IMG/VR virus record: IMGVR_UViG_2690316028_000008
Reading direction: 5' to 3' (one strand)
Source: a virus
Lineage: Duplodnaviria > Heunggongvirae > Uroviricota > Caudoviricetes
Length of the DNA: 7,242 nt
The position numbers and the translations under genes were made by a program. Positions 190 to 7,242 of this stretch are shown one piece after another; position 1 is the first letter of the stretch, and each line of letters begins with the position of its first letter. Below the pieces are notes generated by a model that saw only the letters and a program-made list of their open reading frames with translations, searched no databases and was not told the origin of the DNA.

Positions 190-1788
190 TTATAATTTCG
201 CATATATAGCATTAAACCAAGTTAATGTCTCGCCTTTTGCATCACTTGCAGTGAGCATTTGATAACTCATTTTTCCTGTAGCAAATTTATTTATCTTCTT
301 CTTCGCTTTACTTTCATTATAACGTGTTAAAGCAGATACCTCTGTTGATACATCTGTCGTATCATCTATGGTTATGTTTACACCAAACACCGCCTGAATA
401 GCATCAGGATGTAAATAATTTTCCATTTCCCTTTTTTCAGTCATGAATGCTATGGAACCATCATTTCTAGCATTTACTGACTTACATTCTTTTTCATACT
501 GAGGAGGGATGGCAACATCTCTATCATAGATGTGAACCTCAGGTTTATTTAGAATTTTTAAGTCATTATTATTAACCCAATCTTTAAGAGTATGTCCCCC
601 CATTGGAATGAAAACTATACGCGGATCATTTATCATATCAGGAACATTTGGAACACCTTGGTCGAGATAAATTTTACCGATATTCCTTAAAAAGTTTATA
701 TCATTAGGGCCTTCAACGCATACAAGAACAGATGCCCTACTATCAGGGTATACGCCAAGATCATTCGCTATGTTCTTTAGCACATCATCATTACCATTTT
801 TAACCTCTAAACCATCATCGAGTGTTCGGGTTATATGGCGTAGAGATTCTGTAGGTATCTTTTCCACAAGTGCAGGGACGTGGGTGGTAATCAATACTTG
901 GCATTTATCAGCATTTGCTAATTCTTGAAATGCATCAATAAGAAGTCTTTGATTAGATGGGTGTTGAGATGTTTCAGGTTCTTCAATTGCATAAATAACT
1001 CCTTTATCTGGGAATTCTTTTTGCAATCTTTCTGCTTCCGCTTTAAAAAAACTAATCAGGACTAAACGTCTAACACCACTACCACGTTTATTGATAGCTA
1101 TTCCTCTATCATCTTCCAATGTTAGCTTGAAAATATTTTCCCACTTAGGTTCCACTTTAAACTTTGGGATTAACCCGGCAGCAAGATTAGGAGATATATC
1201 ATGTAAATGTTTAATTGTGTTTTCAGCCACTTCAACTGCATGTTCTTTTACGCTTTCTTTAATGGATTCAAGTTGAATGTCAATCTTCTGCAATGCTGTT
1301 TGAACCGCTGACTTCATAGGATCCTGTACTTCTGATTCTTCATCGGTACTCGGCCTGTCTGCGCGGAATAATGCAAAGTGAGGGAGTTTGTCATATATTT
1401 TTTCACAAATAACCTTGCCCTCCTCAGCATTTAATTTAACGAAGATTTCTTTAAGCTTTAAATCTCCAATTTTCCTGTAAATTTCTTGTCTTAAACTAAC
1501 ATTGGACCTTTTATCAGCTCCATCAACACCAATAGATTCGGCAATTACTTTAAGTTCATCATTTTTTTTAGCAAGTAAAGATTTCGCGCCTTTTGCTGAG
1601 GGAGCCATACATTTAGCTTGAACGCTGCTAGATCCCTTACCTTTTGCAAATACTCTATATATTTCTAGCTTTCCATTACTATTTAATAAATATTCTTCTT
1701 TAAGGTTAGTTATAGATGTGGCATCCAAAACTATAGGTATATCAGCTCCTGAAAAGATACATCCAATTGACACGTCTTCATTTTCCAC
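190..1788 (-). CDS. OLD-family ATP-dependent endonuclease (ABC-type ATPase + C-terminal Toprim); frame as given starts at GTG and lacks the Walker A region, which lies upstream of an in-frame TAG
   Basis: ABC ATPase motifs: Walker B-like VIYAIEEPE, H-loop LITTHVP. Toprim motifs: VLVCVEGPND (nt ~709-729) and HIYDRD (nt ~517-525). The same frame continues upstream to ATG at 1977..1975 (MKLEKLIL-TAG-NFRGYHGEHSIDINSLTALVGRNDVGKTT) with Walker A GRNDVGKT at 1893..1867 and a GGAGA Shine-Dalgarno 3 nt before that ATG. No SD precedes the GTG at 1788. Family assignment is from motif recognition, not a search. Confidence 0.75.
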   Translation of the reverse strand: MENEDVSIGCIFSGADIPIVLDATSITNLKEEYLLNSNGKLEIYRVFAKGKGSSSVQAKCMAPSAKGAKSLLAKKNDELKVIAESIGVDGADKRSNVSLRQEIYRKIGDLKLKEIFVKLNAEEGKVICEKIYDKLPHFALFRADRPSTDEESEVQDPMKSAVQTALQKIDIQLESIKESVKEHAVEVAENTIKHLHDISPNLAAGLIPKFKVEPKWENIFKLTLEDDRGIAINKRGSGVRRLVLISFFKAEAERLQKEFPDKGVIYAIEEPETSQHPSNQRLLIDAFQELANADKCQVLITTHVPALVEKIPTESLRHITRTLDDGLEVKNGNDDVLKNIANDLGVYPDSRASVLVCVEGPNDINFLRNIGKIYLDQGVPNVPDMINDPRIVFIPMGGHTLKDWVNNNDLKILNKPEVHIYDRDVAIPPQYEKECKSVNARNDGSIAFMTEKREMENYLHPDAIQAVFGVNITIDDTTDVSTEVSALTRYNESKAKKKINKFATGKMSYQMLTASDAKGETLTWFNAIYAKL

Positions 1789-2317
1789 GCTATCGACACA
1801 TTTATCGGTAGCATCATATTTACATAGTTTATGTTCAAAGAAGACACCAAATGCGTCTAAGATAGTTGTTTTACCAACATCATTACGACCAACTAATGCA
1901 GTTAGTGAGTTAATGTCAATGCTATGTTCTCCATGATAGCCACGAAAGTTCTATAAGATTAGTTTTTCAAGTTTCATAAAAATCTCCATTTTTAAAAATT
2001 AAAATTTTATTTTTTAAAACTTACGCATTCGAAAAAACATTTGATTTTGTTGTATTCGAAGTAACAAGAACAATTTATAAAATTAGTTCAATCGAAGTCT
2101 TGGGTAAGACGCTTTTTCTCTTTAACAAAACGGATAACTACGCATTGGACAATAGATACTTTAGGAAACACGCGGAAAAATTGTAACGTTTTGCTCATTC
2201 TAGACCTGATATTCCTTCAAATTAGCAAGTTCGAGAGATAAGGGGAAATTACGATAGTCTACCAGAATCATTTCACACCTGCTCTAAACAATATGCAGAA
2301 AATAATATATGTATTTA

Positions 2318-2980
2318 TTAGTAAAGTTCTCCAGTTCCCTGATCTACACGTTTATAGAAATCAGAAAAATTACATGGGTCAGATATAACTGAGTTTTTAT
2401 CACTACGAAAATCAAATTCTATTTTTTTTATAAGATCAATGGCTGGTATAGTCGAATTTAAAGGGATTTTTTTATAGTTTCTAATTCTGTGATATTCAAT
2501 TGAGTCTAAGTCTACTTCAATCGCTTTATTACCAAAATAATAAAAATGATCTGAAATCAACACGTTATTAGAGCTAGTATCTCGTTCAAGATTTGTCATG
2601 TTAAATGAACCATCAGCATTGCTATGATGAGAATCTTCTTGTATCCATTCATTGTTTTCATTTTGATGGTAGATATTATCGCCCAGAATTTGTACATGAC
2701 TACCATTTCTAGCAGGCTTTTTGAGAGAGAACCTGGTATCCTCCCAATAACCATTGAAACTAATTTTTTCTGAAACTTTCATTAATAGGATACATTTTTT
2801 TTTAGCTGATTTTAAATTGGCTCCACCAACTCCGAGTATCCAATCACCCACTTTAGCTGACTTTCTAATTCCAGGTTTGCATGTTGCCAAGGTACAACTT
2901 CCATGAAATGGATTAGGTGCAAAACCAAAGTCTCTCGTTATTGCATAAACATAAAGGTGTGAGTTGGGATCAATTAGCAT
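2318..2980 (-). CDS. Hypothetical protein (220 aa), unknown function
   Basis: Uninterrupted 220-codon ORF, same strand as neighbours. ATG start overlaps the stop of the upstream gene (ATGCTAA). SD-like AAGGTGG about 9 nt upstream of the ATG. N-terminal region contains YAITRDFGFAPNPFHGSCTLATCKPG (Cys-x4-Cys); I do not recognise a family. Confidence 0.6.
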   Translation of the reverse strand: MLIDPNSHLYVYAITRDFGFAPNPFHGSCTLATCKPGIRKSAKVGDWILGVGGANLKSAKKKCILLMKVSEKISFNGYWEDTRFSLKKPARNGSHVQILGDNIYHQNENNEWIQEDSHHSNADGSFNMTNLERDTSSNNVLISDHFYYFGNKAIEVDLDSIEYHRIRNYKKIPLNSTIPAIDLIKKIEFDFRSDKNSVISDPCNFSDFYKRVDQGTGELY

Positions 2981-3465
2981 ACGACATTTCCACCTTGAAC
3001 TTTATCACGATCCGTACCATCAGGTTTTTCAAAGGAAGTTTTACCTTCTAGTGCGTTGATAATGGCATCACTTCTCCAGGCCACTATAGAGGTTGCATAC
3101 TTTTCGAGATTCTCTGGTAGTTTTACATCGCCTTTTAACCCATTTTCATATACACCTATGATTGGTTTTCCAAGTTGATGAGCTACTTGAATTTCCCAGT
3201 TTACCCAAGGTCTAGTATGTGTCTCTTTCCCGATAACAACTATAACTTGACTAGCCCACCTCATTTTCATTCTAAGTAAACGTGCAATCGTTCGGTCACT
3301 AAGTTTTTTTTCCTCAACTCGTCGCTGGTTTTCAGGTTTCATTCTAATAGAACTATTGCGTAAATGATAACCTTTTGCTGCAGCTAAACGAGAAACTCCA
3401 TCAACACTCGCGTCGTCTTTATGATGATGGCTAACAAAAACATTTTTCTTAATTTCTTTAACCAT
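2974..3465 (-). CDS. TIR-like domain protein (ThsB-like / DUF1863-type)
   Basis: 163-aa ORF with ATG start and AAGGA SD 7 nt upstream. N-terminal VFVSHHHKDD and central VVIGKETHTRPWVNWEIQVAHQLGKPIIGVYEN match the characteristic pattern of bacterial TIR-like (Thoeris ThsB-type) domains, including the conserved Glu in WVxxEI. Recognised by eye. Confidence 0.7.
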   Translation of the reverse strand: MVKEIKKNVFVSHHHKDDASVDGVSRLAAAKGYHLRNSSIRMKPENQRRVEEKKLSDRTIARLLRMKMRWASQVIVVIGKETHTRPWVNWEIQVAHQLGKPIIGVYENGLKGDVKLPENLEKYATSIVAWRSDAIINALEGKTSFEKPDGTDRDKVQGGNVVC

Positions 3466-3486: not shown

Positions 3487-4518
3487 CTAATTATAAAATA
3501 ATTCTATATTATTGCTTTGATAATGGTATTTTTGTTTAGGCCTTTTATTGTTAAATTTAGTTCGGCATCTTTTATCTATCTCGCATGCACCACTATTTTC
3601 CATGTCCATTAAGGTGTAAACTCTTTCTTCTTTAGGCAGGAAATGGAATATTTCATCCATGTTCCAATTTTCTCTATACTTTTCAGCGATGTTATTTTGG
3701 TTTATAGTGAACCAGAATAAACACTCTTCGCTATTCATTCCATCTCTATTAGAAAAAATCCAATTAATTCCTCTTTCACAACCAGGACCTGAAATAACAA
3801 AGTTCAATTCTGTAAACGGAAAGTTGGGTATGTATGTCAGATCTATGAAAATTTGATATGCTAGAAAATCCCCAATCCCTGAGAATGATTTTAAATGTTC
3901 AAAAACTTCGAACTGATTTCCTGATGATTTTACACCATTAACGATTTTATCTTGGTTATAATAAACAAATTTTATCATTCTAATTACCATATCATTTTCC
4001 GGTATTCCTTCTATATTTTTTAAGTATTTTCCGAAGTTAAACTTCGGACCTCCTAAAATATAGGCTGCACTAAAAAATACGTAGCCTGGTTTTTTTAATG
4101 ATATGTTTATTGTCTTTTCTCTGATCTTTTCATTGATGTCGCGAATAGTCATTTTTGTGAAATCAAAGGGCGCATCAAGTTCATTTAATGTATCGCTTTT
4201 ATTTATTACTCTAAACAAAAATGAATTGAGTATTTTATTTTCATAAGTTAATTTATTGTTGTTTGTTATATTTTTCAATAACCATTTGGTTTCTTTGTCC
4301 CATGTTCTTTTAGTATTTACAAATTTATAGTTTCTCAATATTTTGTCGTCTGTCCAATATGGCGGAAGGTTAAGTATCTCTTTCTTGTAATATATGGATG
4401 TCCTCTCTCGTTGATGATAAAACCATTCCTTGATAACAGCTTCATTCAAGGTAGGTTTAGCGGTTTTAATTTTCATTTCTCTGACATTACAAAAAAGTTG
4501 ATCGTTTTTACTGTTCAC
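3487..4518 (-). CDS. Hypothetical protein (343 aa), unknown function; contains a helix-hairpin-helix-like motif
   Basis: Long uninterrupted ORF co-directional with cluster. Start uncertain: GTG at 4518 overlaps the upstream gene by 11 nt; an alternative ATG at 4476 gives a 329-aa product. Motif FSGIGDFLAYQIFIDL resembles HhH nucleic-acid-binding hairpins. No P-loop. No family recognised with confidence. Confidence 0.6.
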   Translation of the reverse strand: MNSKNDQLFCNVREMKIKTAKPTLNEAVIKEWFYHQRERTSIYYKKEILNLPPYWTDDKILRNYKFVNTKRTWDKETKWLLKNITNNNKLTYENKILNSFLFRVINKSDTLNELDAPFDFTKMTIRDINEKIREKTINISLKKPGYVFFSAAYILGGPKFNFGKYLKNIEGIPENDMVIRMIKFVYYNQDKIVNGVKSSGNQFEVFEHLKSFSGIGDFLAYQIFIDLTYIPNFPFTELNFVISGPGCERGINWIFSNRDGMNSEECLFWFTINQNNIAEKYRENWNMDEIFHFLPKEERVYTLMDMENSGACEIDKRCRTKFNNKRPKQKYHYQSNNIELFYN

Positions 4519-5065
4519 TTAATAATACCTTTTCGAAGAAATGTTTAAAACTATCAATTCCGTTCACATTGTTGTCAAAATGATATTCTGATTTTGTTTT
4601 ATTCTCAGTGACATACTTGTCGATTTCGTATTTTTTATAATTATTATTTTCCCGTTCTATATGTACTATAGTGAACTGATTGTTCTTACACCATGCGAAT
4701 TCTTCATTTGATCTTATGTCAGTAATTATTATATTTTTATTCGTCCCTCCATTTTTTTCTAAAATTTTCAACTCTTCTGATAGCATTCTAATAAATATTT
4801 TTTCTTCAATTTTCCTTAGGCTGTCTAAGCTCAGCCATATATCTCTTGGTGAATGGCTGATAAAGTCGCCGGTAGGTAAGGTTATATTGAGTGGTAACAT
4901 TTTATTTTCAGGTGGGTAATCCTTTTCCATCCAAGGATAAATATAATTGGCCAATTTTTTGAGTTGATCGCTAAATGATAATCTAATAAATCCATAGTTG
5001 GATATCAGATAATTGGCAAGAAAGTCTTTTCCACTACCCGATATGCCCATGAATGCAATTTTCAT
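4508..5065 (-). CDS. P-loop nucleotide kinase, deoxynucleoside-monophosphate-kinase-like
   Basis: 185-aa ORF. N-terminus MKIAFMGISGSGKDFLANYL has a Walker A/P-loop at the extreme N-terminus, as in phage T4-type dNMP kinases (MKLIFLSGVKRSGKD...). ATG (5065..5063) overlaps the TGA stop of the upstream TS-like gene (ATGA), suggesting translational coupling. Confidence 0.7.
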   Translation of the reverse strand: MKIAFMGISGSGKDFLANYLISNYGFIRLSFSDQLKKLANYIYPWMEKDYPPENKMLPLNITLPTGDFISHSPRDIWLSLDSLRKIEEKIFIRMLSEELKILEKNGGTNKNIIITDIRSNEEFAWCKNNQFTIVHIERENNNYKKYEIDKYVTENKTKSEYHFDNNVNGIDSFKHFFEKVLLSEQ

Positions 5066-6147
5066 AGACGGTCCTTATTAGAATTATTAAAATAATTAGA
5101 AGTTACGCTTAGATTGAAATCATTGCTTAACTTAGTTTTTAACACTATTGGTTGATTGAATCTTTCCTGGAAAATATATGATAGAGCTGCTTCTGCATAT
5201 CCCCAAAGTAAATTCCTTTCAGTTTCTACAAAGTGTTTAATAAATATTTTTTTTAGATTTTCGGTTTCCATATCTATTGTGTCTATTTTATGTTCATTTT
5301 CTGTTATTATTCTTTCAAGGAATGAAACTATATCACAGAATAATGATTTTATATTTTGTAACGATGGAGGGAATGATATTTCATCATCGTTTATCAAATC
5401 TGTCATTTGTTCTTCTTTTCTTTCGTATATTTCATTGGCTTGTCCTACTCTATCATCATATATATGAAGATTTGTTACTGATTGATGTAAGTATCCCAGT
5501 TTAATCTCGCTATCAACTTCCCTCTGTAATATTGAAAGTACTATCTCTTGAAGTAAACTAAACTCGAAAAGATTTATATTGCTCACTCCAAATATTAGAT
5601 CGCCGCTTCTTTGAACTATTTTAATGTTTAAATTTTTGTCAGGAGTGATAAAGAAATGAATTAAGTTATTACAAGGAATATCGACACTATGTTCTATGTT
5701 GTATACTTTTATGAGGCTTTCATTCGTATCTCTGTCAGGCATGTATAAGCTAATGACTGCTCTTCTTGTAAATATTCCTTCTTTTTTGAATTGTTGCACG
5801 ACATTCTCAAGTTGCCCGTGAGCGTATAGTCTTTCCCCATAAGCTGCTCGCCAAATGACACCATCATCTGAGTATTTAGGCGCTCTTGGTAAAAAAAAAT
5901 TTAGATATGGTTTAATTCTGTTGTCGCCAGCAAAAACCCATATAGCTTCAGCAAATGTGGAAAATATATTATTTTTTCGACCCGCTAAACTTAAATGCCT
6001 TGATCTAGGGTTTCGTAAGATCATACTAACATCATAAATAGTTATAGCATCCCCATTCCTTGTCGAAATACGAACTCCTTCATTAAGCACTTTTTCTAGG
6101 AGTTTCATTATTACATCGTTAATAGTTTCTCCGTAAATGACGTGCAT
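5062..6147 (-). CDS. Thymidylate synthase superfamily enzyme (ThyA-like; possibly a dNMP C5-methylase or hydroxymethylase) with C-terminal extension
   Basis: Motif-by-motif correspondence with E. coli ThyA: KVLNEG (KVLDEG), EAIWVFAGDN (ELLWFLQGDT), TRRAVISLY (SRRIIVSAW), DIPCNN (APCH, catalytic Cys; codon at 5673..5671), QRSGDLIFGVSNINLFEFSLL ([20 protein letters not shown]), HIY (HLY). About 115 extra C-terminal residues with no TS counterpart. ATG at 6147 preferred over the upstream in-frame TTG at 6153 because SD GAGG lies 8 nt before the ATG. Confidence 0.8.
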   Translation of the reverse strand: MHVIYGETINDVIMKLLEKVLNEGVRISTRNGDAITIYDVSMILRNPRSRHLSLAGRKNNIFSTFAEAIWVFAGDNRIKPYLNFFLPRAPKYSDDGVIWRAAYGERLYAHGQLENVVQQFKKEGIFTRRAVISLYMPDRDTNESLIKVYNIEHSVDIPCNNLIHFFITPDKNLNIKIVQRSGDLIFGVSNINLFEFSLLQEIVLSILQREVDSEIKLGYLHQSVTNLHIYDDRVGQANEIYERKEEQMTDLINDDEISFPPSLQNIKSLFCDIVSFLERIITENEHKIDTIDMETENLKKIFIKHFVETERNLLWGYAEAALSYIFQERFNQPIVLKTKLSNDFNLSVTSNYFNNSNKDRL

Positions 6148-7057
6148 AAACAAAACCTCATGCTATAAAAACATCTTTTTAGTTGATATAGTTTATTGGG
6201 CCTAATCCAGAATTTGGTCCAGCTATGATCTGGACTAACCGGATAGCACGTTTCAATCTCTTGCCTCTAAGAACAGGCTCGAACGTGATAGCCAATTGGC
6301 TTCCCACTTAGCAAGTGAGACCTCGACCCACGCTACCGCCCTCAGTTGCATAGGCACTGCGTTTGTATGAACATTTACAAATGTTACTCATGTTATGGGT
6401 TTGGTCAATCTGGCAATAAGATAATTACGAAACTTTAGACTTATTACTTAAGTGGAGGTGGCGCGAGTCGCTAGCGAGTAAGACTGTCTCTTATATGTAC
6501 CAGAAGCACAACTGACGATGCTCCAAAATCATAGTCACCGCTGCGTAGCAAGCTGTGGCCTCTCGCTACTCCCGGGTGCCCCAGTTACAACGTTGTGGGT
6601 TGCATAAGAAATCTGTCCCGCCGGATTAGAGTGGTGGTGGATTACTGACTGTACTCTGCGTTCAATACAGAGACAGCCCGGAACAGGCAGTAATTGATGC
6701 CGGAACGAGACTATTTAAGAACAAACCGCCCCCGGTTAGCAGGATCGTCTCGGCCGGCAGGAAAGCATGCTAACACCTACATGAAGTCCCTGTCAGTGCA
6801 GGCCCCAGACTCAACACCACCAATCTACTTTTCACCACTGCGAAGTAAGGGGCGCTACGCCCGGTTATGCAGGGGCAGTTTTTCTCCTGTGCGCTTTTCG
6901 TTCCTCTATCGGCTTCCTGTTAATCGTTTCCCAACACAACCCGTCCCGCAAGGGTAAATGGCACGCATGCTGCGCCCTTGCAGGACAGAACGATGTCGGG
7001 AAAGCGAACCGTCAGGCGATACGAAGACGAAAATCACACACTGACGGAGAAAAAACG

Positions 7058-7237
7058 ATGACGATTTCCCTGCATACCACCCGGACAAGCGCCCCTAACA
7101 CCGCAGCGGCGACCAGCGTATCCCCGCTGGACCCGTCAGGCTCCTCAAAAACGAAATTTTCTAAAACCAGAACCGACATTTACCGTAAGCGTCGTCTGAG
7201 TACCGTCTGGTCCCGAATCCAGGATCCTGTAACTTAA
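7058..7237 (+). CDS. Hypothetical small protein (59 aa), Ser/Thr/Pro/Arg-rich
   Basis: ATG at 7058 preceded by GGAGA about 8 nt upstream; ORF runs to TAA at 7235-7237 (MTISLHTTRTSAPNTAAATSVSPLDPSGSSKTKFSKTRTDIYRKRRLSTVWSRIQDPVT). Just below the 60-aa ORF-track cutoff. No family recognised; could be a remnant. Confidence 0.3.
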   Translation: MTISLHTTRTSAPNTAAATSVSPLDPSGSSKTKFSKTRTDIYRKRRLSTVWSRIQDPVT

Positions 7238-7242
7238 GCACC

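Follow-up and report, generated by a model that had tools for sequence, protein, structure and literature searches.

A TIR-Nmad2 pair with recurrent TIR/SLOG neighbours in a DS-4-like operon of nucleotide enzymes from Escherichia coli

DS-4 (working name NTTI) is an antiphage system that was validated by DeWeirdt, Mahoney and Laub (Science 2026, PMC13092281). It originates from an Escherichia coli strain (assembly GCF_003333785.1), was cloned in MG1655, and consists of genes for a thymidylate synthase (TS), an adenylate (deoxynucleoside monophosphate, dNMP) kinase, a putative DNA base hypermodification protein (HMUDK_hel), a TIR protein and a hypothetical protein (Nmad2). The table of that paper flags the TIR protein as a ThsB homologue, and its screen entry gives for phage lambda a -log efficiency of plating of 0.93 with small plaques, marked as replicated; the system is not treated in the mechanistic section, and only the five genes were tested (PMC13092281). 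A defence role of this gene set is already published, without a mechanism or a part for the TIR. Two other kinds of system are close by content. One is type III Thoeris (van den Berg et al. 2024), for which the preprint of Yirmiya et al. (2025) describes several TIRs together with a SLOG effector and gives signalling as uncharacterised. Phage thymidine hypermodification employs a dUMP hydroxymethylase, 5-HMUDK and aGPT-Pplase (Lee et al. 2018, 2021). Here, we analyzed the TIR gene at positions 2974-3465 of a 7,242-nucleotide stretch of DNA (IMG/VR virus record IMGVR_UViG_2690316028_000008), hereafter called the window, which an original prediction made from the letters alone had singled out as ThsB-like. 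What is new in our analysis is the TIR-Nmad2 core, the predicted folds of the two open reading frames (ORFs) regarded until now as "unknown", and a recurrent link to TIR_2/SLOG genes.

The window genes are all on the minus strand, and five of them follow the order TS-like, dNMP kinase, HMUDK_hel, TIR and Nmad2. At the protein level, they are 77% (TS-like), 71% (kinase), 77% (HMUDK_hel) and 93% (TIR, WP_072044445.1) identical to their DS-4 counterparts; these values cover the first four proteins, and Nmad2 was assigned by gene order and domain. On this comparison of sequences, the window operon is an orthologue of DS-4, with the same five genes in the same order, and both come from E. coli mobile DNA. 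However, the window holds a diverged set of alleles, whereas DS-4 is closest (95 to 98%) to a Buttiauxella locus (L017), which carries SLOG3, TIR_2, a TIR-like protein and a SLOG-patatin protein just downstream. The flanks differ as well: an OLD/AriA-like ATPase in the window, and in reference E. coli genomes an operon encoding a transmembrane (TM) protein, two ThsB, TIR_2 and SLOG2.

The TIR gene (TIRq) is the fourth of the operon. Its ORF begins with ATG in the ORF listing, an AAGGA ribosome-binding site lies 8 nucleotides (nt) upstream, and 21 nt separate it from the HMUDK_hel gene. It encodes a minimal ThsB-type TIR of 163 amino acids, in which the motifs VFVSHHHKDD, WVNWEI and GKPIIGV occupy residues 9-18, 87-92 and 99-105. 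Pfam ThsB_TIR (PF08937) matched this protein with an E value of 3.8e-20 and 72.6 bits (cut-off, 21.2) over profile positions 1-98 of 100, and the PADLOC ThsB1 model PDLC00418 matched its full length at 4.4e-73; TIR_2 was a weak second match, and there were no other Pfam families. Both the motifs and the family matches are far above chance level. We also searched the PDB with a profile built from 20 homologues and inspected all matches with E values of up to 10. The Bacillus cereus ThsB structures 6LHY and 9B7D, the latter recorded as "putative cyclic ADP-D-ribose synthase ThsB1", were matched at 4e-9, and WVNWEI (E91) aligned on WVRYEI, their catalytic-Glu helix motif. The remaining matches at this threshold were ThsB/TIR structures and noise, with no entry for nucleoside 2-deoxyribosyltransferase (NDT), MilB, DNPH1 or LOG among them. 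Similarly, Pfam and NCBIfam gave the TIR no match to these N-glycosidase families, and in the NCBIfam scan of the window proteins, the TIR, Nmad2 and HMUDK_hel matched no named family.

We found 656 homologues of the TIR, nearly all of 162 to 163 amino acids and with approximately 70 to 75% identity between distant taxa. Indeed, the TIR is the slowest-evolving component of the set, with a mean pairwise identity of 76 to 81% versus 61 to 72% for the other components. Among 39 sequences from at least eight phyla or classes, 36 residues were invariant, including E91 and the C-terminal cysteine. Judging by these conserved residues, the protein is a catalytically intact ThsB-type TIR. The original prediction of a ThsB-like TIR within a nucleotide-metabolism operon was hence borne out, by the family and structure matches for the TIR itself and by the domain matches of the TS-like, dNMP kinase and HMUDK_hel proteins for its surroundings; the search that it had proposed against TIR-like (DUF1863) models was significant over the whole domain, and NDT models gave no match.

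The TIR family terminates in an invariant cysteine (C163; window positions 2974-2976), sometimes followed by a glutamine. This cysteine may bind a metal jointly with the invariant His13-15, or may itself be a modification site. We rejected the idea that it is a mere by-product of the ATGCTAA overlap with the next gene, since loci without the overlap keep the cysteine.

This next gene encodes Nmad2 (positions 2318-2980, minus strand; 220 amino acids; PF18753, 3e-64). The TIR stop and the Nmad2 start share 7 nt (ATGCTAA, positions 2974-2980 on the minus strand, read directly from the sequence), an overlap that implies translational coupling of the two genes. To see how far this arrangement extends, we gathered related loci by exact-protein look-up and by one scan of the GTDB species genomes, which gave 37 loci from Gamma-, Alpha-, Beta- and Deltaproteobacteria, Campylobacterota, Nitrospirae, Verrucomicrobia, Flavobacteria and Planctomycetes; all counts below refer to 36 species loci with a TIR ORF, annotated against a reference protein set. 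Nmad2 lay directly 3' of the TIR in 34 of these loci, the exceptions being a contig end and a truncated TIR. The 7-nt overlap recurred in 20 of the 34, and most others showed overlaps of 1, 4 or 10 nt or gaps of at most 16 nt. Nmad2 is the constant, translationally coupled partner of the TIR, and the two form an obligate pair.

Nmad2 is predicted to adopt a PUA-like fold (YTH/EVE/ASCH). The structure prediction reached a pLDDT of 77.8 and a pTM of 0.80, and a Foldseek search with the model agreed in kind with such a fold, although weakly. Recognition of unusual or modified bases is the kind of task for which PUA-like folds of the YTH/EVE/ASCH type are known. The family also contains many invariant polar residues (Asp, Glu, His, Cys and Arg), on the basis of which Nmad2 may be an enzyme instead of a passive reader. 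Our search of the literature on Nmad2 and nucleotide modification associated proteins returned nothing mechanistic. In 50,697 phage records, we found no match to Nmad2 and only remote matches to the TIR, mainly in temperate Staphylococcus phages, and neither protein was present in lytic phages; the pair was thus rejected as a phage modification module. Homologues of Nmad2 (7,082) are approximately 10 times more numerous than those of the TIR, so Nmad2 must also act in contexts without this TIR. In a locus from the Planctomycetota (L045), two Nmad2 paralogues (5033-5776 and 8417-9142) flank the TIR.

Besides Nmad2, the loci shared a second kind of neighbour. TIR_2 and SLOG adjoined the TIR-Nmad2 pair in 25 of the 36 loci, either as a fusion of approximately 675 amino acids between TIR_2 and SLOG cluster 2 or as split TIR_2 and SLOG2/SLOG3 proteins, and three loci additionally encoded a SLOG-like-patatin protein. 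DUF6650-like small membrane proteins and extra ThsB-like TIRs also recurred, including in four of the loci without TIR_2/SLOG. At least one nucleotide enzyme was present in 32 of the 36 loci. The enzyme sets were alternative to each other: TS, dNMP kinase and HMUDK_hel; HMUDK_hel and TS with or without a dCTP-deaminase-like protein (PF22769); MazG-MazG_C and a uracil-DNA glycosylase (UDG); or MazG-MazG_C and HMUDK_hel. Nearly all complete loci thereby combine one protein with a DNA-glycosylase fold, of the helix-hairpin-helix (HhH) or the UDG type, with one pool enzyme. Operons of the MazG/UDG type run in the order TIR, Nmad2, (ThsB-like), TIR_2-SLOG2, MazG_C and UDG, with gaps of -7, 42, 54 and 1 nt; this order and these short gaps place the SLOG gene inside the operon.

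In E. coli, the TIR/SLOG genes lie next to the block. Between bases 57 and 7184, the window matches 12 complete E. coli chromosomes at 99.9% identity, and a variant of the five genes with approximately 93% identity is found in four further E. coli, making 16 carriers among 5426 complete genomes. Just left of the window block, at 10986-14889 of the reference locus (L001), we found a convergent five-gene operon encoding a DUF6650-like protein with two N-terminal TM helices, two ThsB, TIR_2 (397 amino acids) and a SLOG cluster 2 protein (SLOG2, 272 amino acids; PF18163, 1e-76). This location is that of the reference E. coli genomes; in the genome from which the window derives, insertion sequence (IS) ends flank the block. 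Where the window version is present (12 genomes), the stop codon of the SLOG gene falls 56 nt past the start of the IS3 end of the window, and the other four carriers have the same TIR/SLOG operon on the same side, beyond a different variable gene. Both operons occur in the same 16 genomes, which represent one element and not independent evidence. The E. coli TIR_2 and SLOG2 proteins align to the two halves of the TIR_2-SLOG2 fusion (6e-32 and 1e-29), which occurs unsplit in Nitrospira and Nitrosomonas.

These findings bear on two further parts of the original prediction. It had noted the absence of a SIR2, Macro or SLOG ThsA-type partner, which is correct inside the window, where domain, PADLOC and NCBIfam scans found no SIR2, Macro or SLOG gene, and there is no classical ThsA. 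However, SLOG adjoins the block in E. coli genomes and accompanies TIR_2 in most related loci; the absence noted reflects the position of the window ends. SIR2 and Macro domains were absent from the window, the scanned E. coli neighbours and those related-locus proteins that were put to Pfam, the rest having been compared to a reference set free of SIR2 and Macro. The suggestion that the TIR might signal to a neighbouring ORF fared well, as the constant, coupled Nmad2 fits this idea.

The resemblance to Thoeris types I and II lies in the ThsB-family TIR with its catalytic Glu, in the recurrence of SLOG and small membrane proteins nearby and in the defence context on mobile elements. However, unlike in these types, neither a SIR2-SLOG nor a Macro-TM ThsA was present among the proteins scanned here, and the SLOG domains fall into Pfam clusters 2 and 3, with a second TIR (TIR_2) or patatin attached. 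Additionally, the TIR is a bare domain coupled to Nmad2 among pyrimidine-modifying enzymes, and its unusual conservation sets it apart from the accessory ThsB-like genes of these loci, which diverge far more. With its two ThsB-TIRs, TIR_2 and SLOG2, the adjacent E. coli operon fits the architecture of type III Thoeris when compared by description alone, although the cited description includes neither Nmad2 nor nucleotide-modifying enzymes. Overall, the gene set is not a type I or II Thoeris, and in the broad sense it shows a Thoeris-like TIR/SLOG coupling across loci, outside the window. The recurrent TIR_2/SLOG link suggests that the published five-gene DS-4 clone may be a fraction of a larger native system, and its weak phenotype could be due to this.

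We then examined the three enzymes encoded upstream of the TIR. The TS-like enzyme (positions 5062-6147, minus strand; 361 amino acids) matched PF00303 (1.3e-16) and PHROG_3676 (6.8e-78); its start was set at the ATG that corresponds to the DS-4 start, while the ORF listing extends to a TTG at 6153. Its closest solved relative was the MilA CMP 5-hydroxymethylase (5b6d, 2e-14), true thymidylate synthases following at 1e-6 or weaker. The catalytic cysteine is retained (DIPCNN). At the base-specifying position where MilA has an Asp, the alignment reads an Asn, which we take to correspond to N177 of E. coli TS, a uracil-type residue (in our register against the ThyA sequence). The enzyme is probably a dUMP 5-hydroxymethylase, as far as these alignments can tell. 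Homologues were found in 513 phage records, mostly of Salmonella, Pseudomonas, Vibrio, Klebsiella and Dickeya phages, the closest (38 to 39% identity, E of approximately 1e-70) in large Vibrio and Aeromonas phages of approximately 144 to 157 kb.

The dNMP kinase (4508-5065, minus strand; 185 amino acids, P-loop GISGSGKD) shares 4 nt with the TS-like gene. It matched the PHROG_139 dNMP kinases (2.9e-30, residues 1-177) and Pfam DNMK (PF21448, 2.8e-10), and not the P-loop families of 5-HMUDK. The third protein consists of HMUDK_hel only (3487-4518, minus strand; 343 amino acids; PF18723, 4e-53); it is all-helical, lacks a kinase domain and bears the RefSeq name "putative DNA base hypermodification protein". 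Its predicted structure is confident (pLDDT 93) and resembles aGPT-Pplase and HhH DNA glycosylases, with the PaMx11 5-PmdU glycinyltransferase as the best superposition. Homologues occurred in 393 phage records, one of them annotated as aGPT-Pplase clade 1. ViI-like phages with hypermodified thymidine are presumably among the phages that carry TS-like or HMUDK_hel homologues. An adjacent pair of residues, Cys312-Glu313, is invariant in the family and recalls the essential Cys/Glu of aGPT-Pplase2 (Lee 2021), although the PDB profile search gave no matches on which to align them. We initially took HMUDK_hel for a possible MazG_C domain and dropped this because direct BLASTP showed no similarity. 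A fusion to an N6/N4 DNA methylase domain (PF01555) is seen in one homologue of 593 amino acids (P0289, 41% identity) and supports DNA as the substrate of the helical domain.

These three proteins thus resemble the phage pathways of thymidine hypermodification, which begin from 5-hmdUMP (Lee 2021): the TS-like and HMUDK_hel proteins have full-length homologues with 31 to 39% identity in large Salmonella, Vibrio, Klebsiella and Dickeya phages, the kinase is of the phage type, and the HMUDK_hel model is closest to a phage glycinyltransferase. However, the operon lacks the P-loop 5-hmdU DNA kinase and the pyridoxal phosphate, radical-SAM or FAD tailoring enzymes, and it is cellular, borne by an integrative and conjugative element (ICE) and defensive, not viral. 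DS-4 is among the few validated antiphage systems made of enzymes otherwise known only from phage DNA-hypermodification pathways. Moreover, a TIR-Nmad2 pair with interchangeable sets of nucleotide enzymes, spread over at least eight bacterial phyla or classes, constitutes a definable and testable family.

To account for these data, we tentatively propose, with a probability of roughly 0.4, that the TIR is a NAD-cleaving, signal-producing enzyme that is controlled by Nmad2 and works inside a composite Thoeris-like system. The TIR would cleave NAD+ and most likely release an ADP-ribose-derived product, or would at the least use up NAD+. Nmad2 would supply the input that switches it on; we propose this because the TIR is a bare 163-residue domain without a sensor module and evolves too slowly to track variable phage proteins. 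The product would be read by the SLOG-domain proteins beside the pair, namely, the TIR_2-SLOG fusions or split pairs and, in some loci, SLOG-patatin, or alternatively by the small DUF6650-like membrane proteins, and these receivers would then deplete NAD+ or damage membranes. The TS-like enzyme, the kinase and the HhH-fold protein (or MazG and UDG, with or without the dCTP-deaminase-like protein) would be part of this system and act on the pool of 5-substituted deoxyuridine or on DNA, and would either make the ligand for Nmad2 or directly poison phage DNA synthesis. Should a modified base indeed act on the TIR via Nmad2, TIR immune signalling would gain a new type of input, and the manipulation of nucleotide pools would be linked to NAD-derived signalling.

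One could go further and imagine a "write, read, signal" immunity in which the host senses an invader by tagging its replicating DNA with a modification of the phage type, an idea that we regard as rather improbable. In the write step, hydroxymethylase and kinase (or MazG, UDG and the dCTP-deaminase-like protein) would skew the deoxyuridine pool such that DNA made during infection gains 5-hydroxymethyluracil or uracil, and the HhH- or UDG-fold protein would further process the marked DNA. Nmad2 would next read the mark or a released base and activate its TIR partner, whose NAD-derived signal would finally fire SLOG-linked NADase, patatin or membrane effectors.

Of the alternatives, the one that survives best, although still unlikely, holds that the TIR itself is the effector: once Nmad2 or a modified nucleotide has switched it on, it would deplete NAD+ and abort infection without any diffusible signal, and the TIR/SLOG genes would be a separate type III-like Thoeris travelling along. 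In favour of this, DS-4 works as a set of five genes that includes no SLOG protein, and no receiver was recognised in some loci (L018, L045 and L048); furthermore, the TIR keeps its catalytic Glu, and the E. coli TIR/SLOG operon is a separate, convergent unit with a variable gene in between. However, the MazG/UDG-type loci hold TIR_2-SLOG2 in the same co-directional operon, between Nmad2 and MazG/UDG, and the association with TIR_2/SLOG recurs in several arrangements across phyla (25/36). Furthermore, the ThsB-type TIRs characterised in the literature are producers of signals and not bulk NADases.

A second possibility, which takes up the N-glycosidase idea of the original prediction and is in our view a doubtful one, is that the product of the TS-like enzyme, for instance, 5-hydroxymethyl-(d)UMP, serves as substrate to the TIR-like protein, which would be a nucleotide N-glycosidase or a base-transferase. 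In the manner of MilB, BcmB or DNPH1, it would release a modified base or sanitise the pool, as part of a route to modified DNA or to a toxic pyrimidine. The analogy to the nucleoside-antibiotic pathways of MilA/MilB and BcmA/BcmB is what recommends it, since these also combine a TS-like hydroxymethylase with a Rossmann-like protein carrying a catalytic Glu in one operon, and MilA is the closest solved relative of the enzyme described here. MilB, the natural partner of MilA, is a nucleotide N-glycosidase with a related Rossmann-like fold. Additionally, all other members of the operon handle pyrimidine nucleotides or DNA bases, the families TIR, NDT and LOG/SLOG share a common catalytic logic with Glu as nucleophile or acid, and an effector with a CMP-hydrolase domain has been reported in type VIII Thoeris, so TIR systems can indeed include nucleotide N-glycosidases. 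Yet, the sequence of the TIR lends no support to such an activity: its profile matched only ThsB/TIR structures, and its Pfam families were only ThsB_TIR and TIR_2. The partner is thus a TIR and not a member of the NDT family; the TS-like enzyme also differs from MilA in having Asn instead of Asp, and a dNMP kinase is present. This kinase would compete for the same monophosphate, which argues for flux to the triphosphate and not to the free base. Finally, the TIR-Nmad2 pair is equally conserved (approximately 72% identity between groups) in MazG/UDG operons without the TS-like enzyme, so the TS product is unlikely to be the substrate of the TIR.

It seems less probable still that the TIR is just an extra ThsB sensor of the neighbouring multi-TIR/SLOG (type III-like) Thoeris that landed by an unrelated nucleotide operon and has no functional tie to TS, kinase, HMUDK_hel or Nmad2. 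Several ThsB genes are common in Thoeris loci, both PADLOC and DefenseFinder call this TIR a ThsB, and the TIR/SLOG operon adjoins it in 16/16 E. coli carriers. However, the TIR overlaps Nmad2 by 7 nt and follows HMUDK_hel after 21 nt, and so lies inside the operon, and Nmad2 follows it in 34/36 loci while other ThsB-like genes vary. The high conservation of the TIR also contrasts with the divergence of the accessory ThsB-like genes, which match each other at E values of only approximately 1e-20 between loci. As to a housekeeping NDT or an ordinary nucleotide-salvage enzyme, which the original prediction had considered and which the position among nucleotide enzymes might evoke, we can practically dismiss it, as the TIR occurs in only 16/5426 complete E. 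coli genomes, on an ICE by genes for a type IV secretion system (T4SS), MobC and ArdC, has no similarity to NDT families and has its orthologue in a validated defence system.

Two accessory proteins of the related loci deserve mention. SLOG-patatin is a protein of 538 amino acids with a SLOG-cluster-2-like region and a patatin domain (PF01734, 2e-28), encoded at L016 7489-9105, L017 14121-15737 and L033 14108-15724; it sits in the TIR/SLOG cluster beside the operon that is most similar to the published DS-4, and it could plausibly be a signal-activated lipase effector. The dCTP-deaminase-like protein (250 to 280 amino acids; PF22769, 1e-13) has a hydrophobic or coiled C-terminal tail. It was found in L027, L029, L030, L036 and L041 and goes with the HMUDK_hel and TS versions that lack the dNMP kinase, which is consistent with its feeding dUMP to the TS-like enzyme.

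In the E. coli carriers, the five-gene block is cargo of an ICE, near ardC, mobC and a virB-type T4SS, inserted near yeeJ/shiA. In a variant of this ICE (L002), a restriction endonuclease and an IS30 remnant fill the slot of the ATPase while the five genes persist, indicating that they behave as a unit. The plasmid collection contained no copy of the operon. Rfam and tRNA scans of the window found nothing, and a scan for promoter and terminator consensus sequences scored no better than shuffled sequence. The GC-rich right end was considered as an RNA gene or a tRNA attachment site and rejected, as it corresponds to the ardC promoter and N terminus.

The ends of the window are not ICE sequence, and ardC is cut after approximately 127 nt. 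The terminal inverted repeat of IS3, in reverse complement, makes up positions 1-56 and is present at 15,161 places in 4,269 E. coli genomes; another multi-copy element, with 727 places in 525 genomes, has its end at positions 7185-7242. Two IS ends hence bracket the 7.1-kb block of the source genome, in what looks like a composite-transposon arrangement. Inside the block, the ATPase at positions 190-1920 (minus strand) is an AAA_15 protein of 576 amino acids with an OLD/Toprim-like C-terminal region, which matched PADLOC AriA (1.6e-37) as well as Old and GajA. It occupies the variable slot between the five-gene operon and the TIR/SLOG operon and is probably an independent single-gene defence.

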